Numbered from the stretch's first letter, positions 188 to 21,427 are shown. The stretch: 64,000 bases of DNA from Glycera tridactyla (GCA_965644265.1 OZ286476.1:22506001-22570000); one strand, 5' to 3'. Notes: a model not told the origin generated them from the letters alone. Numbers and translations: made by a program.

Positions 188-790
188 ATGGGGCGTTCCA
201 GCAAACAGAGATGTTTACTATGCTATCGAATGTTTCGTGGTGGTGCTGGAATATCTTTACATGAGAGGAGGGTGCACTCGAGAATTTTGGATTCTAATAT
301 TGAAAACAACCCAGAGTTCAAGGAACAGGAGCTTGTTTTTCTGAGCAAATACGAATCTGATTTGTCACCAACAAACCTCAGGACACATGTTTTGGTAAGT
401 ATGGATATCCAAACATTGTGTGAAACAGATCAGAATGCATCCACAAGCAGTTTGAACGAGGTGAATAGCAACATCAGTCACAAAAGTGTGCTGCCTCAAG
501 ATAACATACTATCCAGTGACGCACTGGAGCCCTCTAGCTCCACAATGATTGGAAAAAGGAAACGGGAATCAGGGCACGAGCAGATAAGTGCCAAAAGGAT
601 CCATTACGATGAATCCAAATATTCAGAATTGGTTACAAAGTTAGCTTTGGATATTGTAATGGCCCCATTCTATTTGGCACTGATACAAATGCAAGTCAGA
701 TATTACACAGCAGTATCAAGGGTTGAAGGCTCATGTCAGCTCAATGGCACAGTAAATACATCTCATATACTTACCTGGATACATTATTAA
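188..790 (+). CDS. C2H2 zinc-finger protein with basic NLS-like segment (ORF track 98..790; ATG at 188)
   Basis: CLLC-x12-H-x4-H (CLLCYRMFRGGAGISLHERRVH) with F and hydrophobic residue at canonical positions; GKRKR motif. A perfect donor TTG|GTAAGT at 394/395 suggests splicing. Confidence 0.6.
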   Translation: MGRSSKQRCLLCYRMFRGGAGISLHERRVHSRILDSNIENNPEFKEQELVFLSKYESDLSPTNLRTHVLVSMDIQTLCETDQNASTSSLNEVNSNISHKSVLPQDNILSSDALEPSSSTMIGKRKRESGHEQISAKRIHYDESKYSELVTKLALDIVMAPFYLALIQMQVRYYTAVSRVEGSCQLNGTVNTSHILTWIHY

Positions 791-4200: not shown

Positions 4201-5833
4201 CTTATATCACGGTTGCCTGTATCACGGGTGTATTGAATGCTATCCCGAGAATAGAGAGAGAATGCTTTTCAAGTCATCTGGGCGGAGCTATCAGGAGTGT
4301 TATTTGAGGACAATCAAGGACCAAGAGATCCTTTCTGCGATGGGACTTAATGTTGAGGTGATGTGGGAGCACGATCATGATGCATTGATTCTCATAGATT
4401 CTCTTGCCAGGGACCTTAATCGCAACGTCCATTTTGAACCTCCTTTGAATCCCAGGGAGGCATTTTTCGGAGGTAGAGTGGAGAATATCAGACTAACATG
4501 GTGTAGAGATAAGGATGATAGAATGCTGTCTTACTATGATTATTGTTCTTTATATCCATGGGCAATGAAGTATAGAACTATGCCATTATTCAACCCTACA
4601 GTTATCACAAAGGACTTCACATGCATTGATGATTATTTCGGTCTAGCAAAGGTACTGGTTGTTCCACCCAAGAGGCTATTCTATCCAATATTACCATACA
4701 GAGCAAGAGGTAAGCTCGTATTCACACTATGCGCCAAATGTGCACATTCCAACAACCAAGAAGATGTGTGTAACTGCTCAGATAATGACAGAACACTTAA
4801 AGGTGTTTACGTAACAGAAGAGTTGAAACTCGCTGTCGAAAACGGATACCGGATTTCCAAATTTTTCGAGGTTTATCATTATGATCATAATTCAGACAAT
4901 TATCTGGATTCATTTCGTGGTAGTAATTCGAACATCTTTGAAGATTACATCAACCAGTTCCTGAAGATTAAAACAGAGAGTTCGGGCTACCCGGTAGACT
5001 GTATCAGCAATGAAGACCGCGAGAAATACATAAACGACTACTATACAAAGGAGGGCATTCGTCTTGATGCACAAAACATCGAAAATAACCCCTCAAAACG
5101 TGCAATAGCGAAGCTTATGTTGAATGCCTTATTCGGCAAATACGCCCAAAAGATTCATCGTAAACAGACCAAATTCATCACCTCAGACTATCCTCAGGAG
5201 CTGTTAAACATCATGTCTGACAGCAGAATAGATATAAGTGATTTCAACATCATTTCCAGTGACATACTATCGCTGGAATACACCGAGATGAAAGACTGCA
5301 TGAAGACCCCAGCAGTCAACAATGTCGTGATTGCAGCATTCATCACAGCATACGGGAGAATGAAGCTATATGAAGCATTGAAAAAGACACACAAGAGCTG
5401 TCTGTATATGGACACAGACTCCGTAGTTTTTGAGCAAAGTACAAAAAGCACAGTTCTCCCTCTTGGCAAGTTTCTGGGTGATCTCACCTCTGAGATACCC
5501 GATGACGTGTATATCAAAGAATTTGTGAGTACGGGTCCAAAAAGCTATTCGTACATCCTGTCAAATGGTTCGAGAATTCTCAAGTACAAAGGGTTCTCGT
5601 TAAATTCAAGGGCAAAATCAATTCTAAATATTGAAACAATGAAGAGCCTGATAAAAAATCACGAAGATGAAGAAGCTAGCACGAGCTCAATCAGTGTTCC
5701 TAACACTCTAATCAAGCGAAACAAAAAGAATCTGTCAATCACCACAACGTTTGATAGGATAAAGGATTATACATTCAATGTTGATAAGAGGAGAGTGATG
5801 AGTGATCTATCCACACTACCTTTCGGCTACTGA
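1270..5833 (+). pseudogene. polB: Protein-primed family B DNA polymerase (pPolB), disrupted by in-frame TAA at 2866-2868 and a frameshift at about 3899-3909
   Basis: ExoI YDIET, ExoII AHNSSRYD, ExoIII YCINDV; Pol motifs YDYCSLYP, KLMLNALFGK, YMDTDS. Cys-rich N-terminal region and a VSR-like nuclease insertion (VDGY...YHGCLYHGC...VMWEHD). ORFs 1270..2868 and 2869..3909 share a frame; 3962..5833 is in the next frame, open from 3899. Confidence 0.95.
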
Positions 5834-6635: not shown

Positions 6636-6830
6636 CAGTCAGTCAGTCAGTCAGTCAGTCAGTCAGTCAGTCAGTCACCCTCCTCTGCCGCCGAGCCCGC
6701 CCTCTGGGCGGGCTCGTCGGGTGTCATAATTACCGAAGCGAACGTAGACGAAGTCGGCCGACGGGGATTCGAAGTTCCTGGGTCAGTCAGTCAGTCAGTC
6801 AGTCAGTCAGTCAGTCAGTCAGTCAGTCAG
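6636..6830. repeat. (CAGT)n microsatellite split by a 106 bp GC-rich inverted copy of about 10383-10500
   Basis: 6636-6676 and 6784-6830 are CAGT runs. The reverse complement of 6677-6782 matches CCCAGGAACTTCGAATCCC...GGTAATTATGA...GGGCGGGCTC near 10383-10500. Confidence 0.9.
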
Positions 6831-8040
6831 CTCCAATGCAAGACCGCTTTCTGCTTGATATCTGTATGTAAAACAAGCTGGTGAATCCGCTGGTCGAGTC
6901 GGATTCGCGATAAAACTGCCGGTTTCTTCACAAATAGTTTTTTGAATAGGTGAATAAATACCTCTCTAACTGAGACCACCTCCGATGCGAGACCGCTTCA
7001 TATCTATACCTAAAACAAGATGATGGGCACGCTGGTCGAGCCGGATTCGTGATAGAACTGACAGTTTTCTTCACAAATTGTCATTCGAACATGTGAATAA
7101 ATACCTTGCTGAGTGAGACAACCTCCAATGCGAGACCGCTTTTGGCCTCATATCTATACATAAAACAAGATGATGAACACGTTTATTGGATGGGATTTGT
7201 GATAGAACTGATGTGAATAAATACCTCTCGAGACCACCTCCAATGCGAGACCGCTTTTGCCTTCATATCTATACATACGGTCCAGCCAGATTTGTGATAG
7301 AACTAACGGTTTCTTCACAAAGTGAGCATTCGAAGATGTGAATAAATACCTTCCATGAGTGACCACCTCTGTTGCGAGACCGCTTTTAACTTCATATTCA
7401 TACGTAAAACAAGATGGTGAATACGCTGCTCATGTCGGATTCGTGATAGAACTGATGTGAATAAATACCTCTCTCAGTGAGACCACCTCCAATGCGAGAC
7501 CGCTTCTAGCTTCATATCTATATGTAAAACAAGATGATGAGCATGCTGGTCGAGCCGAATTCCTGATAGAACTGACGGTTTCTTCACAAATAGTCATTCG
7601 AACATGTGAATAAATACCTGTCTGTATGAGACCACCTCCAATGCGAGACCGCTTTTGGCTTCATATCTATACGTAAATCAAGATAATGAACACGATTATT
7701 GAGCCGGATTTGTGATGGAAATGATGGTTTCTTCACAAATAGCTGTCAAAGTGAGCCCTCGAGATGTATCATGTTTGTGTATCTACTCGAGCTGTGACGA
7801 AAATAACCGAGTGTACCCGAACCTGCGCCCGGCTTAATATAGTCAAATATGTGAATAAATACCTCTCGAGACCACCTCCAATGTGAGACCACTCTGGCGA
7901 ATATAGTCGTCAAACTTCATATCTATACGTAAATTAGGATGGTGAATACGCTGGTCAAGTCGGATTTGTGATAGAACTGACAGTCTCTTCATAAATAGTC
8001 GCCAAAGTGAGCATACAATAGGAATGTGTATCTGCTCGAG
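6831..8040 (+). repeat. Left arm of tandem array, ~8 units of 115-145 bp with core GAGACCACCTCCAATGCGAGACCGC
   Basis: Cores near 6832, 6972, 7114, 7230, 7360, 7480, 7628 and 7868; shared GTGATAGAACTGA and TGTGAATAAATACC. Confidence 0.9.
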
Positions 8041-8189
8041 TCCACAGAGTTAGATGAGGGGAGGGGGGTTGCTGGTGGGGTGTAGCGCTGACCCTAATCT
8101 GAGGGAGCCTACCAGCCGCATATTTGACTTTATCTAGCCTACTTATTCTAGCCAAGCACAGGTTCGGATCCACTCGGATATTTCCGTCA

Positions 8190-10190
8190 AGACAGGAGTA
8201 GATACACATTCCTATCGAATGCTCACTTTGGGGACTATTCATGAAAAAACCGTTAGTTCTATCACAAATCCGACCCCATCAGCGTGTTCATCGTCTTGTT
8301 CTACGTATAGACATGAAGTTTGAAGACTATGATCGTTAAAGCGGTTTCACATTGGAGGTGGTCCCGAGAGGTATTTATACGTATATTTGACTGTATCTAG
8401 CCGAATGCAAGATCGGCTACACTCGACTATTTCAGGCCGAGTGTAGGTTCGGATTCATTCGGCTATCTCCGTCACGGCATGAGTAGATACACACTCCTAT
8501 CGAATGCTCACTTTGGAGACTATTTTTGAAGAAACCGTTAGTTCTATCACAAATCCGACCCCATCAGCGTGTTTATCGTCTTGTTTTACGTATAGACACG
8601 AAGTTTGAAGACTATGATCGTTAAAGCGGTCTCACATTGGAGGTGGTCTCGAGAGGTATTTATACGTATATTTGACTGTATCTAGCCTACTTATTCTAGC
8701 CGAGCACAGGTTCGGATTCACTCAGCTATCTCCGTCACGGCACGAGTAGATATACATTCCTATCGAATACTGACTTTGATGACAATTTGTGAAGAAACCG
8801 TTAGTTCTATCACAAATCCGACTCCATCAGCGTGTTTATCGTCTTGTTTTACGTATAGACTTGAAGGGGTCTCGCATTGGAGGTGGTCTCACACAGAGAG
8901 GTATTCATTCACATCAGTTATATCACAAATCCGGCTCGACCAGCGTATTCCCCGCCTTGTTTTACGTATAGATATGAAGTCAAAAGCGGTCTCGCATTGG
9001 AGGTGATCTCACCGAGAGAGGTATTTATTCACATCTTCGAATGACTATTTGTGAAGGAACCGTTAGTTCTATCACAAATCCGGCTCGATCAGCATGTTCC
9101 CCATCTTGTTCTATGTATAGNNNNNNNNNNNNNNNNNNNNNNNNNNNNNNNNNNNNNNNNNNNNNNNNNNNNNNNNNNNNNNNNNNNNNNNNNNNNNNNN
9201 NNNNNNNNNNNNNNNNNNNNNNNNNNNNNNNNNNNNNNNNNNNNNNNNNNNNNNNNNNNNNNNNNNNNNNNNNNNNNNNNNNNNNNNNNNNNNNNNNNNN
9301 NNNNNNNNNNNNNNNNNNNNNNNNNNNNNNNNNNNNNNNNNNNNNNNNNNNNNNNNNNNNNNNNNNNNNNNNNNNNNNNNNNNNNNNNNNNNNNNNNNNN
9401 NNNNNNNNNNNNNNNNNNNNNNNNNNNNNNNNNNNNNNNNNNNNNTCTTGTTTTACCTATTGATATGAAACGGTCTCGCATCGGAGGTGGTCTCACTGAG
9501 AGGTATTTATTCACATCTTCGAATGACTATTTGTGAAGAAACCGTTAGTTCTATCACGAATTCGAGTCGATCAGCGTGTTCATCATCTTGTTTTACATAT
9601 AGATATGAAGGCAAAAGCGGTCTCACATTGGAGGTGATCTCACTTGGAAGGTATTTATCAAGAAACCATCAGTTATATCACAAATCCGACTCGAGCAGCA
9701 TGCTCACCATCTTGTTTTACATATAGATATGAAGGCAAAAGCGGTCTCACATTGGAGGTGATCTCACTCAGCGAGGTATTTATTCACATGTTCAAATGAC
9801 TATTTGTGAAGAAACCATCAGTTCTATCACGAATCCGACTGGACCAGCGGATTCACCAGCTTGTTTTACATACAGATATCATGCCAGAAGCGGTCTCACA
9901 TCCGAGGTGGTCTCAGTTAGAGAGGTATTTATTCACATGTTCAAATGACTATTTGTGAAGAAACCGTCAGTTCTCTTGCGAATCCGAGTGCAGCAGCGTG
10001 TTCATCGTCTTGTCCTACGTATAGATATGAAGCCAAAAGCGGTCTCAAATTGGAGGTGGTCTCACTCTGACAGGTATTTATTTGTATATTCTATCGCAAA
10101 TCCGATTCAAGCAGCATGCTCATTATCTTGTTTAACATATAGATATGATGCGGTCTCACACCGGAGGTGGTCTTACTCAGCGAGGTATGT
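8190..10190 (-). repeat. Right arm of the same array in inverted orientation, at least 10 units, with an N gap at 9121-9445
   Basis: Core reads GCGGTCTCRCATTGGAGGTGGTCTC near 8340, 8626, 8868, 8987, 9471, 9620, 9741, 9890, 10040 and 10149. Confidence 0.9.
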
Positions 10191-10298
10191 TTGACTGGCT
10201 GGCTGGGAGAGGTATGCCTGACTGCTTGTTTGTGTCACGCTCCAATTCCCAGGGGGACTTGCCACCAGACCTCTCTCATTCACCCTCAGTCAGTCAAC

Positions 10299-10446
10299 AT
10301 GGGAGCCTGCACGATCACCCTCTGGTGCTTCTGCTACCACCTCATCCAGGGCAAGATCATGAGCTGTCCGGACTTCCCGCCGCCCAGGAACTTCGAATCC
10401 CTGTCGGCCGACTTCATCTTCGTCCGCGGGACGCCCTTCTCCTTCG
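10299..10446 (+). CDS. Candidate first coding exon (signal-peptide-like MGACTITLWCFCYHLIQG...) of the antisense membrane-protein gene, or a stand-alone 98 aa ORF 10299..10595
   Basis: ATG at 10299; strongly C/G-ending codons up to a phase-1 donor TTCG|GTAATT at 10446/10447, after which the composition changes. Confidence 0.35.
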
Positions 10447-10663
10447 GTAATTATGAAACCCGACGATCCCGCCTGGAGGGCGGGCTCAGCGGGCAAGGCG
10501 GGCGGCGGGCAGGCCGGCGCTCCCCCACCCCCCCTCCAGAGAAAACAAATGCAAAACACAAACGAGTATATGCGGATTTCATCAATTTTTTTTAATTTCT
10601 TGCGTAAATACATAGAATATCGCGTTTACATATCGATTATAGTCAAAGCGTAAATAGTGTCCG

Positions 10664-12010
10664 TTACGATGCCGGAAACACGTTTCTGCCTTCGTCGATC
10701 GACATGACGGCCGGAAACATGGCGTACAGAACGAGGACGATGCTTTCGGTCAGGTTCGAAGCGAAGCGCAGGGTCAATCGCGTGGTGCCCATCTGGCGTT
10801 GCTGCGTGAACTCGTTCTGGAGCATGTGGGGCATGATGTCGAAGACGATGAAGCAATAGCCGTTCTTGTACTCCTCTCTCCCGATCATCGGAAATTGCCC
10901 GGTTTGCTCGTTTTTTGCGTGAGCCAGCGTCGAATAGGCTTCCAGATATCGGTCGTTTTCGAAATCCGTGTTGATCGGTCTGTTCGGCACGCTCTGTCCG
11001 TTCACCTCGAAAGAAATGGACGACAGCTTGAAATGCTTGAACACGAACGGGTTCTTGTTGTAGGCGCCATTGAAGTTCGCTTGGGGTACCATGCCCACGA
11101 TCAATCTCGTCGGCGTCCTGCCGTTGAACGGGTTGTCGTACTGGTCGCCGCTGGTTCCGTCTTTGATGATCCACGTCTTGGTATCGCATCTCGTGTAGGG
11201 ATACATGGCGGGTCTGACCGCGAGCGCTTCGCCGTGCGCCAGAAATACGGAGGGCGAAACGTTCAGCATGGGCACCCTGACGAAGGTGTTGGTGATCTCG
11301 ACCTTGTAGTTCCCGGTCGCGCTACTGCAGATCAGTCTGAAGGCGTCCGTGCTCTGGCGGAACTTCAGTTGGAGTTGACACGCGTTCAACAGATACCGTC
11401 CGCACTTGAAGAGGTCCAGGTGGATGCGACCGATCAGCTCGATTTCCGTCGACTCGCTCGTCCTCTCGGCTCGTTTGGCCAGCTTGAGATTGACATTGGT
11501 TGCGGCCGCGAGCTGTGCCGCGGTCCGTTTCGGAACGGCGTCGTCCAACGTTCCGGCCTCCTCCTTGTCGAACATGCCCATGCTCAGCGGCGCGATCGTT
11601 TCCGATTCGTTGGCGTTCAGTAGAATGTCCATCATGGACTTGTCGGGATAATTCGACTGACATTCCACCATCTTTTGCGAAATGTAGCATTCGACAGCAC
11701 CGAAGAAGGACAAGATCGGCATGTTCGCCAGTGCCACCCCGTCCGTCGATGCGAGATCGCCACCGTCGCTCTTGACGATCTTGACCTTCAGATGCAGGTT
11801 CATGCGTTCCAAATCGATGTACATGCGCTGGTTTCCCGTGATGCTGAACTCCAGCGGCGAATAGCTGTTTATGGCCGCCACTGGACCGTAGTCGACGTGA
11901 TTGCGCGACTCGATGGAGACCTCTCGCGGCGGGAGGTTGAACAGTGCCATGGACGACACGTATCCCCAACCTCGGTCCGTGGAGTCGGGCGGGCTCTCGG
12001 ACGTGTCCAT
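10664..12010 (-). CDS. Major capsid protein (double jelly-roll, hexon-like/PY), intact 448 aa
   Basis: Polinton MCP-type N-terminus (ALFNLPPREVSIE...Y.P...I...SPLEFSI.G...YIDL); C-terminal NG..VP..P, GYCFIVFD and G..RL.LRFA motifs. Confidence 0.92.
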   Translation of the reverse strand: MDTSESPPDSTDRGWGYVSSMALFNLPPREVSIESRNHVDYGPVAAINSYSPLEFSITGNQRMYIDLERMNLHLKVKIVKSDGGDLASTDGVALANMPILSFFGAVECYISQKMVECQSNYPDKSMMDILLNANESETIAPLSMGMFDKEEAGTLDDAVPKRTAAQLAAATNVNLKLAKRAERTSESTEIELIGRIHLDLFKCGRYLLNACQLQLKFRQSTDAFRLICSSATGNYKVEITNTFVRVPMLNVSPSVFLAHGEALAVRPAMYPYTRCDTKTWIIKDGTSGDQYDNPFNGRTPTRLIVGMVPQANFNGAYNKNPFVFKHFKLSSISFEVNGQSVPNRPINTDFENDRYLEAYSTLAHAKNEQTGQFPMIGREEYKNGYCFIVFDIMPHMLQNEFTQQRQMGTTRLTLRFASNLTESIVLVLYAMFPAVMSIDEGRNVFPAS

Positions 12011-12020
12011 GATTTTTTTT

Positions 12021-12311
12021 CTAAAATGCTATTCGTAGCGAGCCTTTTTTCGACGAACGTTTGACTGCAGTTTGGGGTCTCTTCGCGCGCTTCTTATGCC
12101 TTTTGTCGGACGACGGTCGTTTCACCCCCAATAGCGATTGCGATTGTTCCACCGCGGCTTGAGCGGGAGATATGGCGACCAGCGATTTCGCCGTCGTCGT
12201 CGTGGGTTTTACCGGTTTGCTCTCGCGAAGAAGCTTGAAGGACTTGGTGTAGGGTACCCGGCCGCGAGCCATTTGCACAAAGTGTTCCTTGACCTTCGCG
12301 TGCTCAGCCAT
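12021..12311 (-). CDS. Small basic core-like protein between penton and MCP
   Basis: 96 aa, K/R-rich C-terminus, ISPAQAAVEQ motif recalled from similarly placed Polinton ORFs. Confidence 0.65.
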   Translation of the reverse strand: MAEHAKVKEHFVQMARGRVPYTKSFKLLRESKPVKPTTTTAKSLVAISPAQAAVEQSQSLLGVKRPSSDKRHKKRAKRPQTAVKRSSKKGSLRIAF

Positions 12312-12774
12312 CCTTCTTCAGAATCAGTTTCAGATAGCAGAAATGTCGAATGCACGGCGAGTCCGAGTGCGTGGGGCGATCGAGATCCCGGTTGATGAAC
12401 CGCACTTTGATACGATCCACGTAATTCTTCACGACTCTGACGTAATGATCTTCGGGAAAGTCGATTTGTTAGTTCTCATAGACTTTGCTCGTGGATCTCA
12501 TCGGAAGATCGCTCGGTATCAGGAGGGTGAGCAGCGGGAGTTGCGCGTTTCCAACCTGCGTCTCTTCTATAAAGTCGCACAGCACCAGTAGCGGTAATCG
12601 GAGGCTCTTGACGGACTTGTTTGCCGGAAACATGTACGAGAAGTACGCGCTGGCGATTCGACATTTCCAGCCGCCGTCCAAAAACGAAGGTTGCGGTAAG
12701 ACGTACGTAAACTCAGACAGGTCGTCTCCGTCGTCACTCCCGGAAATACCCGGTACAATCACAATCTGATCCAT
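12304..12774 (-). pseudogene. Minor capsid protein (penton/PX-like), one in-frame TAA at 12469-12471
   Basis: FTYVLPQP..LDGGWKC, LLVLCDFIEETQVGNAQLPLL. The frame continues past the TAA as QIDFPEDHYVRVVKNYVDRIKVRFINRD...LILKKDG* (TGA 12304-12306). Confidence 0.8.
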
Positions 12775-12918: not shown

Positions 12919-14058
12919 TCAACTGTGTGGAACGTGCGTGACCTCCTTCGCGTCTATCCATGAGTTGAACTTGTTGTGGAAGCCTTTCCACTTGACGTAC
13001 ACCTGTTCCCTTCCATCCAGCACGCGTCTCTTGACGATCTTTTCTATGTCGTACAGTTGATCCGCGTCGGCCGTGTCGCGCACTGCCTGTAGTTCGCTTT
13101 CGTAGAAACTACCTTGCAACCGCTCGCCGTCTTGATCTCTTATGAAGTACACGGGCATGTCTTGCCTCTTTATGACCGAGTCTACGTAGTAGATCTCTCT
13201 GGTCCATCTCTCCGCGTACTCTCCGTACATTTTCTCGCGTCTTTTGGTAATTCTCACCGATTGACCTACACCGTATCTCGGCTTCTTGTTGACTTAGCTC
13301 GCATAATTCCTGGGCTTCCGCTTTTGACGACTGACGTATTGTGCGTATCTGACTTCGTGTTCGTTGTCGGCGTTCACTTCGTTCGGCGTACATCCGATGG
13401 AGCTGTGATAGGTGTCGTTGTATCCTCGAACAAAATCCTGTAGCTTGTCTATGTAACGCTCTGTGCGGTTCTCGTTCATGTATTTTTTAATGCGCTTCTT
13501 GAGCGATCTCCACACTCTTTCGATGAATGCGCATTGCGCCGTGCCGTGAGAGAAATAGTGACCCATGTCGTTTGTTTCTAGGTATTGCAAAAACTTGCTG
13601 TTGGTGAACTCGCTGCCCATGTCTGTCCTCAGACTGTTGCATTTTGCTCCCGCCTCTCGTAACACCGACTCAAACGCTTCTATCACGTTGTCACCGGTCT
13701 TTGTTTGGAGCGGTCTCACATACAGCTTTCTACTGAATATGCAAATGACACCCAACAGGTATCCGGTGTTGGAATTACGTTTTCGCAACTTCTGGTAATC
13801 GCACAGATCCGCTTCCCATATGTCGTTTATCCCGTTGGAAATGACGTTCGACTTTGGGAACTTGAACCGCGCCTCCTTGTTCAGCATATAACTATCCCGG
13901 GTCTGTAACCACCTTTTCACGTCGCTCAGCGTGATCTTGAACCTGGTGTTTTTTCTCACGGCCTTGTACACCTTGTCCGGCGATTGGAAACTACCGGCAG
14001 AGCGCGGATCTGTATAGTGTCTTTTGAGATAATCTTCGCCCTTTTTCGTTAGGACCAT
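12919..14058 (-). pseudogene. int: Retroviral-like (rve) integrase with C-terminal chromodomain, one in-frame TAA at 13294-13296
   Basis: DDE: WEADLCD, LRTDMGSEF, FIERVWRSLK. The frame continues RNYAS*VNKKPRYGVGQSVRI...WTREIY, then the chromodomain YDIEKIVKRR...YVKWKGF...NSWI. Confidence 0.93.
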
Positions 14059-14060
14059 CG

Positions 14061-14546
14061 TTACGATTTATTCTTGTTGAATTTTGGCGTAGGTAGCATT
14101 TGGCCGTACGAAACGCCCAGCATCAAAATCCAAACCTGTCTGTTCTGCGCGTTCAGACTGAGTAACACAATGCTGCACACCACTGTTATTATCGCCAGCA
14201 GGGACTGCGTGTAAAATATCTCCCTCGACTGGTTTGTTCTCTTATGAATTATGGGATCGAAAATTATTCCCCTGGGGTTGACTGAGCCGTTTACCGACGT
14301 GTTTTCGGCCGACGTCTTCTCCTGTTGCGTTTTTTTAATTCTGGGACAGGGTAGCATCAGTCCTATTCCGGTAGAAAGATATATGATCCACACCTGATCC
14401 TCGTCGTGTCCGATCGCGATGTTGATTATGCTAGCAATCACCACCAGAAATATCATGGACGCCTGTATGTAAAACACCTCTCTCACTAACACGTTCCGAC
14501 GGATCCACGATCTATCGACATCTTGCTCTTCGGTGGATTCCATCAT
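14061..14546 (-). CDS. Predicted four-TM membrane protein made of two similar halves
   Basis: EVFYIQ...VWIIYLSTGIGLMLPCP and EIFYTQ...VWILMLGVSYGQMLPTP, each with two hydrophobic segments. First ATG at 14546. Confidence 0.75.
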   Translation of the reverse strand: MMESTEEQDVDRSWIRRNVLVREVFYIQASMIFLVVIASIINIAIGHDEDQVWIIYLSTGIGLMLPCPRIKKTQQEKTSAENTSVNGSVNPRGIIFDPIIHKRTNQSREIFYTQSLLAIITVVCSIVLLSLNAQNRQVWILMLGVSYGQMLPTPKFNKNKS

Positions 14547-15106
14547 CACTCGTTGCTACCTTTATGCAAACAAGATACACTTATGCGTTCCTGCAGGGAT
14601 TCTAGAGCGCGGACAACGCTGATCTGACTCTTCTCGTTGTGTTTCATCCCCGTGATGATGACGACGCCCGACGAGTGTATCAAGAACTTTATTCGTTTAC
14701 CGACCCTCCAAATGAGCGCGTTGAATATCTCCGGTTCGTAAGTTGCGTTCTTCAAATTCAAGCGACGCAGGTCCGGCAGTGGAGTTAACCTGACAGTTGC
14801 CGATATCGTGTTGATCTTGATCCTCTCTAGACGGGGACTCAGACCTTTTCTCTGCAATAGTCTGGCGTATTGTCGAACTTTCTTCTTAGCCAGTTCGACG
14901 GAATTTGCTCCGTGTACCGATATATAACCATTACGGAAAATGAGAGCGGTCGATTTGATCCGTTTGTGACGCCAGACGATGTTACTCATCTTGGGATTGA
15001 CGACGATTCTGGAACAGTTGCGATACATCCAATCAGAGTCTATTGACGTGTTCAAATTTGCGCTGGCAACGACATTAGTTATGCAAATGTCTACATTCTG
15101 ATCCAT
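14546..15106 (-). CDS. Divergent TATA-box-binding protein (TBP)-like protein, intact 186 aa
   Basis: Both TBP repeats align by eye: ITNVVASANL, NPK, TALIFRNG..SVHGANS, KKVRQYARLLQRKG, KINTISAT, YEPEIFNALIWR, FLIHSSGVVIITG. Confidence 0.88.
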   Translation of the reverse strand: MDQNVDICITNVVASANLNTSIDSDWMYRNCSRIVVNPKMSNIVWRHKRIKSTALIFRNGYISVHGANSVELAKKKVRQYARLLQRKGLSPRLERIKINTISATVRLTPLPDLRRLNLKNATYEPEIFNALIWRVGKRIKFLIHSSGVVIITGMKHNEKSQISVVRALESLQERISVSCLHKGSNE

Positions 15107-15675
15107 CTCTGTTCTAGTAGCTTTCTCTGTTCGTCGATGCTCTGGCGGACTTTCTTCAAGTCGAGCTTTGTCGGTTTTACCCGTTTTCTCGGTACGACCT
15201 CGTCCTCTACTACGATAGATGGCAACTTCTTTCCTTTCTTCGTTCGCTCTTCCAATCGTTTAACTGTCCTTTTTCGTTTCCTGTTTGTAGGTGCACTGCC
15301 AGACGACTCCACCACGTCCCGTCCGACTGTCGAGGAGGTGCGGGATGATTCAACGAGTGCTGCCTCGGATGGTACAACCGGCACTTCGACTGTCGGGATA
15401 GATGCCGCAACGATCGCACTATCTGACGAATTGACTAGTCCATCAACGTCAACAGCAGTTTTATCGACGGATGCATCGACCGCGGTCCGTCAAGCGACAT
15501 CATCCGGAGCGAAGACTGACGACGCCTCGACCGTGGACCGTTGAGCGATGTCGACTGCAGTTTTGTTGGCGGAATCTACCGCAGTCGACGGTTCCACCAC
15601 CAACATATCCGACGAAGATCCTTCTAGACGCGACTTGGGTAAGATGATATATTCCCTCACTTCCTTCGATGCCAT
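15091..15675 (-). pseudogene. Polinton ORF of unknown function (S/T/D-rich middle, K/R-rich C-terminus), one in-frame TGA at 15490-15492
   Basis: ORFs 15490..15675 and 15091..15384 share a frame and are joined by open codons (DVA*RTAVDASVDK...TVEVPVV). It overlaps both neighbours. Confidence 0.65.
15291..15638 (+). other. Candidate Ser/Thr-rich (mucin-like) exon, phase 1-1, with internal TGA at 15542-15544
   Basis: Acceptor TTTTCGTTTCCTGTTTGTAG|, donor TTGG|GTAAGA; 348 nt. The pyrimidine tract could instead reflect Lys/Arg codons on the opposite strand. Confidence 0.3.
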
Positions 15676-15995
15676 ATAAGTCTCTTGGCCGATCTGTACA
15701 ACAACAACAGTATGTCGTGAATGCTGTCCTGATTATCGATCAATAAGGCCTTTTTCTTCTTCAACGACGTCCTCCGCGATGCAAGCACTCGAACCAGCGG
15801 TTTCAAATCCACCAGCGATTTCTTTGTGGAATCCGACAGCGGAAGAATGCCATACAACGCGTTGTGCGCGAGTTCGGATATCGCTTTGATCTGCTTGTTG
15901 GATATGGATTGAAGAAGCTTGTTTCTGACCCAGGCTCTCCTCCCGGCCAGTACTAACATGGAAATGAATGGTCCAGACTCTCTTATGAGCTCCAT
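15657..15995 (-). CDS. Conserved small Polinton protein (PW-like; probably the family labelled GasderminX in adintoviruses)
   Basis: LL...S.KQIKAISELAHNALYGILPL.....K.L...K..VRVL....TSLKKKK.LL pattern, located next to the ATPase. Family name is from memory. Confidence 0.65.
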   Translation of the reverse strand: MELIRESGPFISMLVLAGRRAWVRNKLLQSISNKQIKAISELAHNALYGILPLSDSTKKSLVDLKPLVRVLASRRTSLKKKKALLIDNQDSIHDILLLLYRSAKRLIWHRRK

Positions 15996-16029
15996 ATCCG
16001 ACTACTTTTTCGCAATTCACACGCGTCAC

Positions 16030-16740
16030 TTATGAATAGAATGTACACGTTTCACCCGGAAATATGTCTGTTCTCAAACGCAGATAGTTTGGCATGTTCA
16101 CGGTCATGTCCACAACCAGATATCCGTACCGTCTGTCGATTACGGATTTCTCGTAAGCCTTTGGGAGCAAGAGCTTATTTGTTGGGAACCGCTGTCTTCC
16201 AAAAACCTTGATCTGATCAGATGCGGCTGGTGTTTCGAACAGGATCACGTATCCGGCATTCACTGCGATAGTCTTGCTGAATTTACCTTGCTGAAATAGA
16301 TTGTGGCTCACGAAAACCATGGAGCAACCGCTGTGGTGGCATCTGACTGTAAAGAAGTCCATCACGTCTGTCGAATCCACAATTTCTCTCATGAGATCGT
16401 CCAGTACGATTATCAAATGATGCGAGCTCGGATCACAGTGTTCCAAAATCTCGTCTTGAGATAGTAAACCCTGGTGAAAGATTACGCAATCTAACTCGTT
16501 ACGGATCTGGTCAAATAACGGTTGGTAATTTTTGTAACAATACAAGATGTGATGCGGTTTGTCGCTCTCAATTAAGAACTCCTTGTTTGTGAGAAATCTG
16601 TGAAGAAAACTGGTCTTTCCTGCACCAGATCTACCCACTAAGATATAACACTGGTTGAGTTTGAATTTGATGTATCCGTTCTCGCCGTCCAACGAAATCA
16701 AGTCAGACCACACGGGATCCAGTTGCTTGAGACGGCTCAT
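16030..16740 (-). CDS. A32/FtsK-like genome packaging ATPase, intact 236 aa
   Basis: Walker A GRSGAGKT, Walker B IIVLDDL, RCHH...VSHNLF, C-terminal YGYLVVD...LRTDIF. Confidence 0.95.
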   Translation of the reverse strand: MSRLKQLDPVWSDLISLDGENGYIKFKLNQCYILVGRSGAGKTSFLHRFLTNKEFLIESDKPHHILYCYKNYQPLFDQIRNELDCVIFHQGLLSQDEILEHCDPSSHHLIIVLDDLMREIVDSTDVMDFFTVRCHHSGCSMVFVSHNLFQQGKFSKTIAVNAGYVILFETPAASDQIKVFGRQRFPTNKLLLPKAYEKSVIDRRYGYLVVDMTVNMPNYLRLRTDIFPGETCTFYS

Positions 16741-17075
16741 ATCTTAATCGGCTCCCGCAATTGGTGGTTGTGTGCCGCGTAGAATATATCTGTCAACTCT
16801 TTGGCCTTTGATGGAAATTTGTCCATTAAGATCGAGGTTAACTCCCACAACACTTTGACTCTTCCCCAATTCCACTTCCCATCATCAAACATGTACCGCA
16901 AGATGGCCCTGTATTGATGTACGGAGGTAATATCTCTGCTTATGATGCCGATAGATTCCGTAATCCTGCGATCTAGCGATTCCAGTATAACATCCACTCT
17001 CTTATGACTTACAGACGAAGACGATGACGACTTGTTGCTCGAGACATCCATTCTGACGTCCTTGGTTGCGTTCAT
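16737..17075 (-). CDS. Small Bcl-2-like protein (BH1 motif)
   Basis: YRAILRYMFDDGKWNWGRVKVLWEL matches BH1 (F..V..ELF.DG..NWGRIV.L..F). No clear BH2 or C-terminal TM. Confidence 0.72.
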   Translation of the reverse strand: MNATKDVRMDVSSNKSSSSSSVSHKRVDVILESLDRRITESIGIISRDITSVHQYRAILRYMFDDGKWNWGRVKVLWELTSILMDKFPSKAKELTDIFYAAHNHQLREPIKI

Positions 17076-18875
17076 TGGAGTGTGCGGTTTAGCTGTTTAC
17101 GCGTATAAGAGACATCGAGGTGAGTCACTTATAACAAGGGAAAGACTACGAATATGTGTTGTAGCTGCAATAGATACCTACATGTGATATTTCTGATGCG
17201 GTTCTACTACTGTTCTGCAAAGTCCGGCTGTTTACGACTTGAAACACGTATATCTTTCACGTGGCGTAGTGTAATTCTACTATATATATATATATATATA
17301 TATACAGTCTGACTGGCCAAGTGTGATGGCGACACATATGATGTTAAACCAACGAATGACAAACAGCATATGTTGTAATTGTGTTTATTGGTGCCGATAC
17401 AGGTGTATACATATATATATGAATATAACAATTCAATGAATACATTGCAATATATATAATTCTACTAATACGGATGTAAGCATGTCTCGTCCTTGTTTCA
17501 GGTGTCATCCCTCTCAGGTTGCCGGTTGCGGTCGATATACCCATGATACCTGTGGATTCCGGGACGGCTATGAATTCAGGTGAGTAGAGCTCAATGAACG
17601 TGGTACAGTACAGTGTTCGCGTTGCCTACATACTAACTATATATGTAGTATATGATTAATATAGAGCTCACAATGTGCGGCATGAATAAATGCTACATTC
17701 ATCATTTACACTGTACAAGTTCGTACTAGGAGGATCATCGAGTTACGTGAACTAAGATTCCCGGGATATGAGATTACATGAACGTAATCTCTCTCACAAT
17801 GTCTATACCGTTATAGGATCCTGTAGTCAAGTTCAGATAGTTTAATTGTAGTTTATGATGAGGATCACGAGTAGTAAAGTTCATACTGCTCAATTGCAGT
17901 TCATGATGGGGATGACGAAGAGGAAGACGAGATTGACGACAGCACTATATTCACTGTTGTCAATGAGGAGACCATAGTCGAGGAAGGAGCACGGGGGAAT
18001 GTGGCGTCGACACCTTTGTTAAAAAGCATGCCCAGACCATCTGATGAAATCACTGTCATAGAATCGGGCAAACCTCGTGCCAAGATCAACCTTCGTGATG
18101 TCGAAAAAGCTCTCAGTAACCTCTCCATTGATGACACAGTATATCGTCCCGGCGAGGAAGCAACATCAGAAGTGCACGGCGTGATAGATGAGATGAATCT
18201 TGATAACACTGTCTACCACAAACTCCATGGAGATAAAGAAGACATCATCTTCCCCCGACGTGGCACCAGAGAACGTAGACCAGGTAATCACTCATTCTCT
18301 TGCACATCGATCTCGATCCCGATCTCTGTATTGAACTCATCCACGTGCATCTTCATCTCTGCAAATTCTTCTGTGTTCAGATGAATCCCCCTCAAACCTG
18401 GCTGCAATGTACCGTCTTTAGCCTCGTAGTATTCCCTTAGCTGTAGTAGCTTGTAATCATTGTTCATAGACACGTGCTGGTTCGAATCCAAAGCAAACTT
18501 GAACTCTTGTCGATTGCCTGCCATGATTTCGTCGACGGCTGCCTGGATGGTATCTAGCTTCTTGATGAACTCTTTCCATACCGGCTGAGCCATGGTGTAT
18601 CTTCGAATCCTCAAGTGGCTGCTCTTTCGTTGGAATGAAAACCTCGACATCACCACCATGGTTGATCTGGGAGTGTAGGCTATCATGGTCTCTGCTTCAT
18701 GGGCCACGCTCAGCACCATTCTGACTGTTCCACGTGCATCTGGAATTAATACTTTTGATTAGTAAGGTTGTAACAATATGGTATATACATTGTAAATGTG
18801 AGATTACGTGTCTCGAGTATGAATACAATACTATTACACAATGATCTGTTCTCATTTGCAGTTGATCGATACTGA
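17015..18875 (+). CDS. Spliced single-pass membrane protein, exons 17015-17119, 17502-17579, 17900-18283, 18862-18875 (5' exons uncertain)
   Basis: All junctions are canonical AG/GT and phase 1 (CTTACAG|, |GTGAGT, TTGTTTCAG|, |GTGAGT, ATTGCAG|, |GTAATC, ATTTGCAG|). The joined frame is open: DEDDDDLLLETS-ILTSLVAFIGVCGLAVYAY-KRHR, an acidic tail, ending RPVDRY*. Confidence 0.7.
18288..18719 (-). CDS. PC4/Sub1-like ssDNA-binding transcriptional coactivator domain protein
   Basis: LLQLREYYEAKDGTLQPGLRGIHLNTEEFAEM matches the PC4 pattern IDIREYW...G...PGRKGISL..EQW. A degenerate second copy is probable in the N-terminal half. Confidence 0.8.
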   Translation of the reverse strand: MVLSVAHEAETMIAYTPRSTMVVMSRFSFQRKSSHLRIRRYTMAQPVWKEFIKKLDTIQAAVDEIMAGNRQEFKFALDSNQHVSMNNDYKLLQLREYYEAKDGTLQPGLRGIHLNTEEFAEMKMHVDEFNTEIGIEIDVQENE

Positions 18876-19025
18876 CCGACATGAACTCCACACCCGGCAG
18901 TTCTATATCCATCTATGGGAGATCTTTCTGAAAATTTAGATCCTTGAACAGAGTCGTCCGAGTTGGATCTGGTATCCTCTTGATCTCTCGTAGCTGAATG
19001 GGACCTCTCCATTGTGCTAATCCTC

Positions 19026-19031
19026 AATAAA
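19026..19031 (+). terminator. AATAAA polyadenylation signal for the spliced plus-strand gene
   Basis: AATAAA lies 150 nt after the predicted stop at 18873-18875. Confidence 0.5.
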
Positions 19032-19263
19032 GAGTGACTATCAACTGCCTCCGACTCTCTTATATATTCACAAGTGGAGGCATACTATACTATCTCTTGT
19101 ATAATATATTGTGATGGTATAATCTATTGATTATATATTCTACACATATGTTCTATGTTTAGATTCTGTCTCCGAATATACACTGTATAATCTATGAATG
19201 GAAACCTTATATAATACCATATCAATATCCCGTGTACGTGAACTGCATACAGTTACTACTCAC

Positions 19264-20136
19264 CTAATTCTCTAATTGACACACGTCGAAGGACAGAAAG
19301 TAATGGAATTGTGCCAATATGTCAAATGTCCATAGCTCATTGTCTGCGGTGTAGAGCATGATCAACACATATTTGAGTACATCCTGGTAGCCTGTATGCG
19401 GTTGCTGGTGCCTCATGGCATTCAGAATTTTACGAAGGTGTGTGGGAGAGGCGACTCCATCGATCATTTTGTGAAAATCTGATGGGAGTTGGTAATCGTG
19501 TCCTTGAAAATAGGACTCATCGAAGTTGTTCTTGTTGATGTACACCGATAAAAAGTTGAAATAGGTGGCCAGCTCCTCTGTGGTTGGATAGCCTCTACTG
19601 CGACCAGATTCACAGATCTCAGACAGTCTTTGTGCATACAGCTGGTCAGTATCTTCACGCCTGAAAGGTATAATCATCTCAAGCACAGGTTCGACCACCT
19701 GAATGTTGAACATCCAGTTCAGTATGAAGTTAGTGAAAGTATGAATGATGGGGATGAATGCTCTTGGAGAAACACCCAGCAGCCTCTTGCAGATTATGAT
19801 CATCAGTAATATCTCCTTGGATGTGCAGCGGCCTTGATTGAACAGATCAAACAGGACCTCACTGAACATATCCCTCCCAGTAATCTTGGAACATACATGA
19901 TCCATGTATGCATTCACCTTCAGAGTGTAGGGATGTCTCCAATCAAAATGCCAGTATGACTCCTTCTCTTGATTTGCAATGCGATGAAAATATGCCATCA
20001 CTTCTTGCAGTGACCATTCTCGCTCTGATGATATATCAAAATGAGATGGTGCTGCAGCTGTTTCAAAATCCTGATATAGCTCAACCTCCTCAAACTGTTC
20101 TACCATCTGATCAACGGATGTCTCTAAAGTTGTCAT
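19264..20136 (-). CDS. Uncharacterised helical protein, paralog A (290 aa)
   Basis: Long intact ORF; colinear similarity to 20460..21311. Confidence 0.8.
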   Translation of the reverse strand: MTTLETSVDQMVEQFEEVELYQDFETAAAPSHFDISSEREWSLQEVMAYFHRIANQEKESYWHFDWRHPYTLKVNAYMDHVCSKITGRDMFSEVLFDLFNQGRCTSKEILLMIIICKRLLGVSPRAFIPIIHTFTNFILNWMFNIQVVEPVLEMIIPFRREDTDQLYAQRLSEICESGRSRGYPTTEELATYFNFLSVYINKNNFDESYFQGHDYQLPSDFHKMIDGVASPTHLRKILNAMRHQQPHTGYQDVLKYVLIMLYTADNELWTFDILAQFHYFLSFDVCQLEN

Positions 20137-20459
20137 GATGCTGAGGAGGATACTCTCTCAAATGAATAATATGTGAGATGTGACTGTATATATACTTTTG
20201 CAGATGTGAGAATATATATATTACCTTGAGTGACTATTCTCATGCTAGAGAACAAAACTGGCTAGTCTAGAGACAGATTGATAGTATACTCTCCCTCCAT
20301 AGAGCAAAGGTCGCTTGATATCTCATTGGCACAAAGTATGTGATAAACAAGTGTCACCTTCCGAAAAAGCACTCTAGATGTTTGTTAGTTCAACTACGAT
20401 GCCCGTGATGTACACCCGCCAGATGGTTCATTGGATCTACTTACTTGATAGGATACACA

Positions 20460-21311
20460 TCATACTTCCATTCTGCATACATCGACGGCTACGAATAAAT
20501 AGAATTGGAATAGATAATCGTAGTAGCATGATCCATATTCAGCAGCCTTCAACGTGATTAGTATGTATTTCAGTACTTCTTCATATCTCGTGTGGAATAC
20601 CTCTCTGTGCATAACATTCAGGATTTTACGAAGATGGAGGGGGGATTTTACTTGTTGTACCATTGTATGGAATGCACTGTGATATTGAAATTCATATCCC
20701 TGTAAGCAGTTCTCAGCAAAGGGTTCTCTGAGTATGTATACACACATCGTATTGAAATAACTGGCTAGGTCTTCTGTGGTCATATGCCCATTGAGATTGT
20801 ATGGTCTGATACATGAACGCATCACCTTTGAATAATTTTGGTCATTCAATTCACGGTTGTAGGTGATTGTCATGCAAGTTTCAGGATGTGTCATTTTGAT
20901 GTTTAACAACCAACCGGTTATGGTTTGTGTGAAAATGTTAACAATCCGTATCAATGCACGAGGAAACAACCAAGCCAATCTGCTGAATATCAAAACCATC
21001 ACCAATATGTCTGTGTGGCTGCAGCTGCCATCCTTCACCAAATCAATCATGATCTCAAACAGCATATCATTCCCCCTGATTTTGGTGCATACATAGTCGA
21101 AATATGTGTTCACAGTGTATGGGTCCAACTTATTCCAAATATATCTATGAAGAGTATCCTTATGTAGTGATGAGACCGCCATGAAATATGCACTCATATC
21201 CTTTATTTCCCATTCATCTCGGTCCTCTTCCAGAGACTCTTTCTCGGAATCCATCCTGCTTATTCGACTATTCGATTGTAAATGAGCTACACATTCCATA
21301 ACATCTTCCAC
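20460..21311 (-). CDS. Uncharacterised helical protein, paralog B (283 aa)
   Basis: Shared with paralog A: W....AYF, VC.KI.G.D, FPRA/SPRA, TTE.LA.YFN, SP.HLRKILN.M, VLKY.LI.L, F..DVC. Confidence 0.8.
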   Translation of the reverse strand: MEDVMECVAHLQSNSRISRMDSEKESLEEDRDEWEIKDMSAYFMAVSSLHKDTLHRYIWNKLDPYTVNTYFDYVCTKIRGNDMLFEIMIDLVKDGSCSHTDILVMVLIFSRLAWLFPRALIRIVNIFTQTITGWLLNIKMTHPETCMTITYNRELNDQNYSKVMRSCIRPYNLNGHMTTEDLASYFNTMCVYILREPFAENCLQGYEFQYHSAFHTMVQQVKSPLHLRKILNVMHREVFHTRYEEVLKYILITLKAAEYGSCYYDYLFQFYLFVAVDVCRMEV

Positions 21312-21427
21312 AATGCCATCTCATATACTATAGTCTAATATACATGTACACCATGGTAGATATATTCAGCTGCTGTCATAGTGCCCCGTTCCTGGTAGAT
21401 AGCTGTTATACAGCCCCTCTAACTACT

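Follow-up and report, generated by a model that had tools for sequence, protein, structure and literature searches.

The element and its gene content

The window analysed here, a stretch of 64,000 nt from Glycera tridactyla (GCA_965644265.1 OZ286476.1:22506001-22570000, coordinates counted from its start), carries a Polinton/Maverick element that encodes one protein related to the TATA-binding protein (TBP) and another related to PC4. An earlier note on this DNA had read the two genes, together with a C2H2 finger and a large repeat array, as a self-encoded system for redirecting host RNA polymerase II (Pol II). Both genes are real, and so are the array at 6.8-10.2 kb and an element of about 21 kb or more. 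The evidence set out below points to a different arrangement, in which the TBP would be paired with a short box before the virion genes and the PC4-like protein would probably serve replication.

The element (21,827 bp) has 69-bp inverted ends that begin with AGTAGT, in agreement with the (AGT)2 or (AG)3 end motif by which Polinton terminal repeats are recognised (PMC8097293). Where a target-site duplication of 6 bp is expected, TGTGT (5 bp) stands on both flanks; a sister copy has GAGACG (6 bp). The protein-primed DNA polymerase B and the rve integrase both match Pfam above the cut-off (PF03175, PF00665), and both genes are broken in the window copy, the polymerase by an in-frame stop at 2866-2868 and a frame change near 3900. 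The packaging ATPase, the major and minor capsid proteins, PW and PZ have weak Pfam matches and are supported by profile relatives that stand in conserved order across lineages. The names PW, PZ and minor capsid are presumptive, being given largely by position, and the hydrophobic membrane protein beside the TBP gene is one that we take to be PM-like. All features are collected in Table 1.

The TBP-like protein

The TBP-like open reading frame (ORF) matches both repeats of the TBP family (PF00352, E 4.3e-29), all 35 PDB sequences that it retrieves at E<=0.001 are TBPs, and its AlphaFold model (predicted local distance difference test, pLDDT, 92.8) has the two-repeat saddle typical of the family. 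The frame is open, and the ratio of nonsynonymous to synonymous distance (dN/dS) against the window copy is 0.21-0.40 for eight family copies and 0.59 for one more copy, which is degraded (divergent copies, whose dS is saturated, are left out); the gene is intact and under purifying selection. At least 144 TBP-like matches, spread over several Polinton families, were counted in this genome; the host itself has two genes split by introns, one TBP-like (C4) and one TRF2-like (C1). Relatives were absent from viral contigs in three scans and from phage records.

The DNA-facing surface of the protein is altered. In the window copy Met40, Tyr61, Ser63, His65, Thr100, Ser102, Asn129 and His144 stand in place of canonical DNA-facing residues, and the stirrup glutamates Glu124 and Glu126 are kept. 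In yeast numbering, used from here on, the canonical TATA-binding sets are not reproduced: positions 99/116/190/207, each an intercalating Phe in canonical TBP, read Met, Phe, Phe and His, and positions 69/124/159/215 read Asn, His, Thr and Thr. The same pattern is seen when 23 Polinton-locus TBPs (the window, nine others from this genome and 13 of the 18 loci of another assembly) are compared with 92 canonical ones. F99M, K120Y and V122S occur in 23/23; N159 is changed to Thr, Ala or Ser in 23/23, V161S is present in 22/23, and P191 is changed in 21/23. Position 124 is T124H in one group (8/8) and T124N in the other (15/15). On the other side of the balance, E186 (23/23), E188 (22/23), F116 (23/23), L205 (22/23), T215 (22/23) and N69 (17/17) are kept, E186 and E188 forming the stirrup that we take to bind TFIIB. 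The Polinton TBPs thus share the two-repeat saddle and these residues with cellular TBP and TRF2/TBPL1, but they differ from cellular TBP in lacking an N-terminal tail and in the fixed changes at F99, K120, V122, T124, N159, V161 and mostly P191. Cellular TBPs hardly vary on their DNA-binding face (87-92 of 92 agree at most positions), and therefore altered-specificity forms that arose in nature, if their cognate sites are known, would shed light on how TBP recognises DNA. Yeast T124N, F99L, V161A and P191A are tabulated as DNA-binding-null (PMC2265533, Table 1); since the Polinton changes fall on these positions, this protein is predicted not to bind TATAAA normally, though the new residues are themselves conserved.

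In a quick tree of 101 rows, with canonical TBPs thinned to one in six, all 23 Polinton-locus TBPs lie on one side of a branch separating them from cellular TBP and TRF2 (SH-like approximate likelihood ratio test, 99), where position 124 divides them into two clades, one with His and one with Asn. They do not group with TRF2/TBPL1 and lack its signature of Asn99, Trp116 and His190, as compared with two TRF2 rows. A further 23 tail-less TBP-like proteins of about 170 aa (P0018, P0023, P0027 and 20 others) are sister to the Polinton TBPs; 12/23 have Asn124, and Phe99 is mostly kept.

Altered boxes before the virion module

On the minus strand from 17133 to 12010, TATA-like 8-mers are limited to a single TATAAGTG and to CATAAGWR boxes (W, A or T; R, A or G), of which there are seven, about one per gene (Table 1), and the right-hand genes and the zinc-finger ORF of the window carry canonical boxes. 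The comparison covers 34 places in this genome, searched with profiles built from copies: 33 Polinton loci including the window, some of them near-copies and hence not 33 independent points, and one non-Polinton PC4 match. TBP is present in 14/33 loci, always between the membrane gene and PW/PZ. In the 120 nt before module genes, the top 6-mer is CATAAG in family A, to which the window belongs, and TATAAA in the TBP-less PF lineage, and CATAGG is among the top ones in the Asn lineages. Module-wide counts, from which three near-identical family-A copies and two other near-copies are left out, give sense/antisense ratios of 17/1 for CATAAGWR in His lineages, 36/0 for CATAGGWR in Asn lineages and 13/1 for TATAAAWR in PF; the P lineage, which has lost TBP, holds at most two of any box. 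Upstream windows contain the respective box in 9/27 (His), 15/55 (Asn) and 10/34 (PF) cases, against means of 0.5, 1.2 and 0.4 in 200 dinucleotide shuffles, none of which reached the observed value, and show no box enrichment over such shuffles in the P and U lineages. CATAGGA is the top 7-mer in Asn lineages (39 observed, 5.6 expected). Boxes inside coding frames also exceed synonymous-codon shuffles (7 vs 1.1 for His, 21 vs 4.6 for Asn, 7 vs 2.0 for PF), and they are not enriched in the polymerase or PC4 frames.

It might be argued that the motif is an RNA-level or packaging signal, such as a splice acceptor, a stop-codon context or a translation signal, that was simply inherited alongside TBP: CATAGG contains TAG/G and CATAAG contains TAA, independent contrasts are few, and the initiator signal is weak. 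Yet only 2/18 (His) and 5/46 (Asn) instances lie on the stop codon of a profiled gene, and no pyrimidine tract precedes the boxes (0.48-0.51 vs a background of 0.46-0.47). Box positions 7-8 follow the W-R pattern of TATA, and the motif stands where PF has TATAAA, as in the capsid gene (TATAAAAA at -86 in PF, CATAAGAA at -88 in family A) and the membrane gene (-42 vs -39). Such a non-promoter signal is the least likely of the explanations weighed here.

Prediction of the box from residue 124 was set down before the second assembly was examined, in which 11 of 18 loci entered the module-wide count. The four His-type loci have CATAAGWR 8/0 (sense/antisense) and CATAGGWR 1/0, and the seven Asn-type loci have CATAGGWR 15/1 and CATAAGWR 2/2; the pairing of residue and box held. 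In the upstream windows of all 18 loci, CATAAG is found in 6/25 of the His type.

Table 1. Features of the Polinton element in the window.
Feature	Position	Strand	Details
Polinton/Maverick element	1-21427		21,827 bp, starting 400 bp to the left of the window, within a host repeat
ORF with one C2H2-like pattern	188-790	+	canonical TATAAAAG upstream at 78; C2H2-like pattern in frame 83-787
Protein-primed DNA polymerase B	1270-5833	+	PF03175, E 2e-24 and 3e-25
Repeat array	6827-10215		113-150 bp units in two opposed halves; splice-donor-like AG/GTAT per unit
Major capsid protein	10664-12010	-	weak PF21738 match (E 0.068), size and position
Small basic core-like protein (putative label)	12021-12311	-
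CATAAGAA box	12091-12098	-	88 nt before capsid ATG
Minor capsid-like ORF (putative label)	12469-12774	-	label from position and profile relatives
rve integrase with chromodomain	12919-14058	-	PF00665 E 1.4e-10, PF00385 E 3.9e-9; two ORFs in window copy
CATAAGAG box	13137-13144	-	370 nt before minor capsid-like ATG
Hydrophobic membrane protein	14061-14546	-	common to Polintons of this genome
CATAAGAG box	14239-14246	-	188 nt before integrase ATG
TBP-like protein, Polinton-specific group	14546-15106	-	186 aa
CATAAGTG box	14578-14585	-	inside TBP ORF, 39 nt before membrane-protein ATG
PZ-like ORF (putative name)	15094-15675	-	stop at 15490-15492 interrupts window copy
Spliced antisense gene	15291-18283	+	exons 15291-15638, 17015-17119, 17502-17579, 17900-18283, all in one phase
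PW-like conserved ORF (putative name)	15657-15995	-	profile relatives
CATAAGAG box	15980-15987	-	312 nt before PZ-like ATG
CATAAGTG box	16027-16034	-	on ATPase stop codon, 39 nt before PW-like ATG
A32-like packaging ATPase	16030-16740	-	P-loop matches, PF04665 E 0.044, profile relatives
Bcl-2-like ORF, family A only	16737-17075	-	PF00452 E 3.1e-4 (2e-5 in a relative); TATAAGTG upstream at 17133
CATAAGAG box	16999-17006	-	266 nt before ATPase ATG
PC4-like (MOSUB) coding exon	18288-18719	-	143 aa; predicted tandem beta4-alpha repeats in one chain
Putative first exon of PC4-like gene	18877-19012	-	45 codons, Ser/acidic; TATATAAG upstream at 19066
Two paralogous ORFs	19264-21299	-	290 and 279 aa, ~40% identity; family A only; canonical TATA-like boxes upstream
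Right terminal inverted repeat	21359-21427		69 bp, 98.6% identity to left copy; AGTAGT end; TGTGT flanks

A proposed private late-gene switch

Taken together, these observations suggest, with a probability that we put at about 0.6, that the element's altered-specificity TBP binds CATAAG[A/T][A/G] boxes and, by bringing in TFIIB and Pol II of the host, turns on the capsid, packaging and integrase genes. The early genes (the PC4-like gene, the two paralogues, the zinc-finger ORF and the Bcl-2-like ORF) would be read from canonical TATA boxes by host TBP. The element TBP would then open a late class by binding CATAAGWR, keeping its TFIIB contact and bringing host Pol II to the virion module. As judged from TBP-DNA structures, V122, T124, N159 and V161 presumably face base pairs 4-6, where the box departs from TATA; Val122 to Ser and Val161 to Ser might accommodate guanine at box positions 5-6, and residue 124 might select A (His) or G (Asn) at position 5. 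If so, an element with its own TBP and a box to match would have an early/late cascade that needs neither a viral RNA polymerase nor a helper virus, in parallel to the beta- and gamma-herpesviruses. The element would, as the earlier note proposed, redirect host Pol II, with the difference that the cis element tracking TBP is the short virion-module box and not the array. The wider proposition, that of a natural orthogonal TBP-promoter code in which one captured TBP was rewired to CATAAG/CATAGG, with residue 124 setting base 5, and became a private late-gene switch run by host Pol II and proof against host TBP and sister lineages, is tentative and would have somewhat less than an even chance of being right. 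The pairing could be tested with two small proteins and three oligonucleotides (CATAAGAG, CATAGGAG and TATAAAAG).

Several points weigh against this switch. Four of the seven window boxes lie 188-370 nt from the next ATG, and no consistent promoter could be identified ahead of the TBP gene. The PF TATAAA boxes have a clear initiator-like signal 30-33 nt downstream (YYANW, 11 matches in 16 boxes); this signal is absent for Asn-lineage and second-assembly boxes, and present in only two of four patterns in His lineages (YAGT p=0.004, YABY p=0.022; 20 tests). CATAAGA is third, not first, among 7-mers in His lineages; in the second assembly the Asn-type signal is weak in upstream windows (CATAGG in 3/41, all 18 loci), and the 6-mer CATAGG is sense-biased in His-type loci too (7/1). 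The second-assembly loci fall in the same two clades and therefore test conservation, not independent origin, and the evolutionary events behind the whole correlation number about three (gain, His/Asn split, loss). No TATA-like motif is among the top 7-mers in the P or U lineage as a replacement for the box; with U lacking both TBP and an enriched TATA box, and P lacking a replacement motif, Polintons can evidently manage without either. Contigs from a single study, in four sets, overlap the TBP, capsid and polymerase ORFs in part; they show neither strand nor start and hence give no evidence on TBP expression.

The protein could also act as a decoy by sequestering TFIIB or other partners of TBP in the host, the boxes being read by host TBP at low affinity or by the polymerase of a helper virus. 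The TFIIB-facing glutamates are kept, several DNA-facing changes match the DNA-binding-null yeast alleles, most boxes have no initiator signal, and CATAAG contains TAAG, the baculovirus late motif. However, the DNA-facing changes are fixed rather than drifting (the same residue in 22-23/23), the box variant switches with residue 124, CATAGG is without TAAG, and boxes are absent where TBP was lost. A decoy is, in consequence, an unlikely reading of the gene.

Distribution of TBP and PC4

The functional pair proposed in the earlier note is not borne out by the way in which the two genes are distributed. The PC4-like gene is present in 14/14 TBP-bearing loci, and also in 12/19 TBP-less ones (P 7/7, PF 5/5, U 0/7); six of these 19 had been chosen via their PC4 match, and of the 13 chosen by capsid alone, six had PC4. 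Genome-wide, a TBP match lies within 25 kb of 0/34 P-lineage capsid loci, and a PC4-like match accompanies 17/34; likewise, 0/22 distant PC4-like matches have a TBP match within 25 kb. No TBP remnant better than E 0.64 was seen in 3973 frames of the P lineage. Trees of capsid, ATPase and integrase each need two changes of TBP state, with TBP-less P nested among TBP-bearing lineages and keeping PC4; under a midpoint root these would be one gain of TBP and one loss in P, in quick trees that carried long-branch warnings.

The two genes also have different histories within the family. Between the window copy and two sister copies, dS is about 0.05 at TBP and 0.74-0.81 at PC4, the TBP and PC4 trees are discordant, and two family-A copies carry a window-type TBP with a different PC4 type. 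Since the synonymous distance of the same pair rises from about 0.05 at TBP to 0.8 at PC4 (window 16030-20136 against L034 and L151), the family-A copies have recombined and are mosaics. Given PC4 in TBP-less lineages, its retention after TBP loss and the discordant types, PC4 appears to be older than TBP and independent of it. Independent distribution, which the earlier note had named as the result that would speak against a pair, is thus seen in one direction, PC4 without TBP; no TBP-bearing element without PC4 was found among the sampled loci, and the reverse dependence, of TBP on PC4, may hold.

That the two proteins form a minimal initiation kit acting on the element promoters or the array is accordingly quite improbable. 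All 14 TBP-bearing loci do carry the PC4-like gene, both genes are under purifying selection, and the Ser/acidic exon with which the PC4-like protein probably starts bears a loose resemblance to the tail of human PC4. These points are outweighed by the PC4-like genes of TBP-less loci, including the lineage that lost TBP, by the discordant distances and trees, by a tandem type I fold whose best full-length matches are PURA repeats, and by the arrays between polymerase and capsid, which look unrelated among the TBP-bearing lineages examined and occur also in one TBP-less lineage.

The PC4-like protein

The PC4-like ORF matches PF02229 above the cut-off (E 6.9e-8), and its top PDB matches are human PC4 and MoSub1. 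The frame is open, with dN/dS against the window copy of 0.07-0.16 in 11 copies and 0.42 in a degraded one. The structure is predicted (pLDDT 87.1) as two beta4-alpha repeats in one chain, that is, a single-chain PC4 pseudo-dimer. In Foldseek comparisons PC4 is matched over the C-terminal half, and PURA repeats are the best full-length matches (template modelling score 0.56-0.61). The protein shares the PC4 fold of this half with PC4/Sub1, the phage T5 homologue, PURA and Whirly, but differs from PC4/Sub1 in having two repeats in one chain instead of a homodimer; it is predicted to have the type I arrangement of PURA and Whirly and not to be of type II (a single repeat that forms a homodimer), both types being defined in PMC7549692. 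Its best viral structural match is MOSUB of a lancelet adintovirus (E 2.1e-6); the MOSUB label is present once in Supplementary Fig S2 of PMC8502044, and the gene is therefore already known in this group. Among the residues with roles in single-stranded DNA (ssDNA) binding by PC4 (PMC4350104), the F77 position is aromatic in 13/13, R86 is invariant, and W89 is Tyr in the window copy and varies across lineages. A GT-AG intron (18740-18876), supported by one contig joint, keeps the putative first exon in frame, and its splice dinucleotides are kept in 8/8 sister copies; no lysine-rich region was seen in this exon.

Protein-primed DNA synthesis, as in adenovirus and phi29, leaves one strand displaced and calls for a protein that binds ssDNA. 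In phage T5, a homologue of PC4 takes part in replication (cited in PMC7549692). Strand displacement and the T5 precedent together make ssDNA binding in Polinton replication the likeliest role of the PC4-like protein; it would coat the displaced strand as the product of a separate and older Polinton gene, and may also have a side role in transcription. The reading of this gene is thereby corrected to a widespread Polinton gene and candidate replication protein. Candidates for PC4 in the U lineage (6 of 7 loci) gave a profile comparison probability of 3.8% (E 0.011), a best Pfam E of 0.08 and no PC4 match in PDB, and were counted as PC4-negative.

Comparison with known systems

The closest analogy is offered by the TATT-binding proteins of beta- and gamma-herpesviruses (BcRF1 of Epstein-Barr virus, ORF24 of Kaposi's sarcoma-associated herpesvirus and murine gammaherpesvirus 68, UL87 of cytomegalovirus), which belong to the viral pre-initiation complex (vPIC) and likewise combine a viral TBP-like protein, a non-canonical TATA variant before capsid genes and host Pol II (PMC4893493). 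The herpesvirus box is TATT, whereas the Polinton boxes are CATAAG and CATAGG, two variants that track one residue. The Polinton TBP is a bare core with an intact TFIIB stirrup, and is about 35% identical to TBP, as estimated from PDB alignments. The herpesvirus protein, in contrast, is about 10% identical and works in a six-protein viral complex (PMC4893493). None of the other vPIC subunits had a Pfam match among the element's 20 ORFs. For the Polintons the pairing of TBP and box is statistical and known from sequence, and the best reading is that their TBP works like the herpesvirus proteins without being a vPIC member.

Nucleocytoviricota and mirusviruses mostly encode their own RNA polymerase. 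Like the element they encode a protein with the TBP fold, and BFVD gave 38 structural matches at E<=0.001; no RNA polymerase gene, however, was found among the element's 20 ORFs scanned with Pfam. TBPs in putative mirusvirus repeats are mentioned in PMC10675990; bioRxiv 10.64898/2026.06.19.733378 makes no mention of TBP.

With Polintons, Mavericks and adintoviruses the element shares AGT-type ends, protein-primed polymerase, rve integrase, ATPase, capsids and PW/PZ-like genes (PMC8097293, PMC8502044). It differs from these in a TBP between the membrane gene and PZ/PW, in spliced genes, and in that no adenain-like protease was found in family A. Annotations of adintoviruses already include Bcl-2 homologues and a MOSUB (PC4/MoSub1-like) gene. 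In the text of the adintovirus paper, TBP is named only where legends describe figures of MELD viruses and elements related to them, within the section on datasets of non-animal eukaryotes (PMC8502044). How integrated animal Polintons turn on their capsid genes is described as an open question, virions not having been observed (PMC8097293). No description of a TBP with a cognate promoter box in animal Polintons was found in a literature search that had subscription papers, RepBase and most supplements outside its range, and in literature linking polinton and PC4, PC4 was met solely as a table label.

Protease, array and other genes

No profile match to the adenain-like protease was obtained in the window or in five family-A/A57/A58 loci; the other 27 Polinton loci matched (28 matches in all), with none lacking it where the capsid end was spanned. 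The missing protease is read as a lineage loss, which lowers the case for calling family A autonomous but not for calling it Polinton-derived. A conserved Cys-rich ORF (10299-10595, +) occupies the post-capsid position in family-A loci without detectable protease (window, L033, L036, L039, L042).

Neither the array nor the finger supports a unit of cis-array, TBP and PC4. The donor-like AG/GTAT motif occurs in 11 array units on the plus strand and seven on the minus strand, and in one RNA-type contig (a single study, contigs only) array-like sequence is spliced onto an acceptor at 15290 on the plus strand; alternative leader exons, in two opposed orientations, may thus be supplied by the array. 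The idea that its units are TATAGA-plus-initiator promoters read by TBP was dropped, because TATAGA did not rank high among 6-mers upstream of the module genes, arrays are not alike from lineage to lineage, and the joined contig runs about 100 nt into array-like sequence. As for the C2H2 finger, one C2H2-like pattern is present as the earlier note had it, but fingers also occur in the TBP-less U and PF lineages, N-terminally in long frames that contain the polymerase or run into it (L096, L099, L102, L105, L108, L093, L124, L127), and are therefore not special to TBP-bearing elements. Two further genes had been counted as equipment for host takeover. The Bcl-2-like ORF does match PF00452, although below the Pfam cut-off; weak Bcl-2 matches in PF loci (E about 2e-4 to 5e-4) were treated as noise. 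The "membrane receptor-like gene", if the ORF at 14061-14546 was meant, is present, but has relatives in nearly all sampled lineages (32 profile matches) and is not peculiar to this element.

From the acceptor at 15290, GT..AG joints in the contigs of one study lead through the four in-phase exons of the antisense gene, which looks like a mucin-type membrane protein: its first exon is Ser/Thr-rich and the second encodes a hydrophobic helix. The first exon has a premature stop in the window copy (15542-15544); in sister copies its splice sites are kept in 7/8, and the frame is open in 6/7 of those translated. This gene, with a part from 18862 onward, is nested across PZ, PW, ATPase, Bcl-2 and PC4, and has a basic tail after the helix and an acidic region. 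The two paralogous ORFs at the right end have no Pfam match and were found only in family A and A58; the one at 19264-20136 is under purifying selection (dN/dS 0.10-0.14). Other copies of the host repeat that holds the element fill much of the rest of the window (28593-56800).

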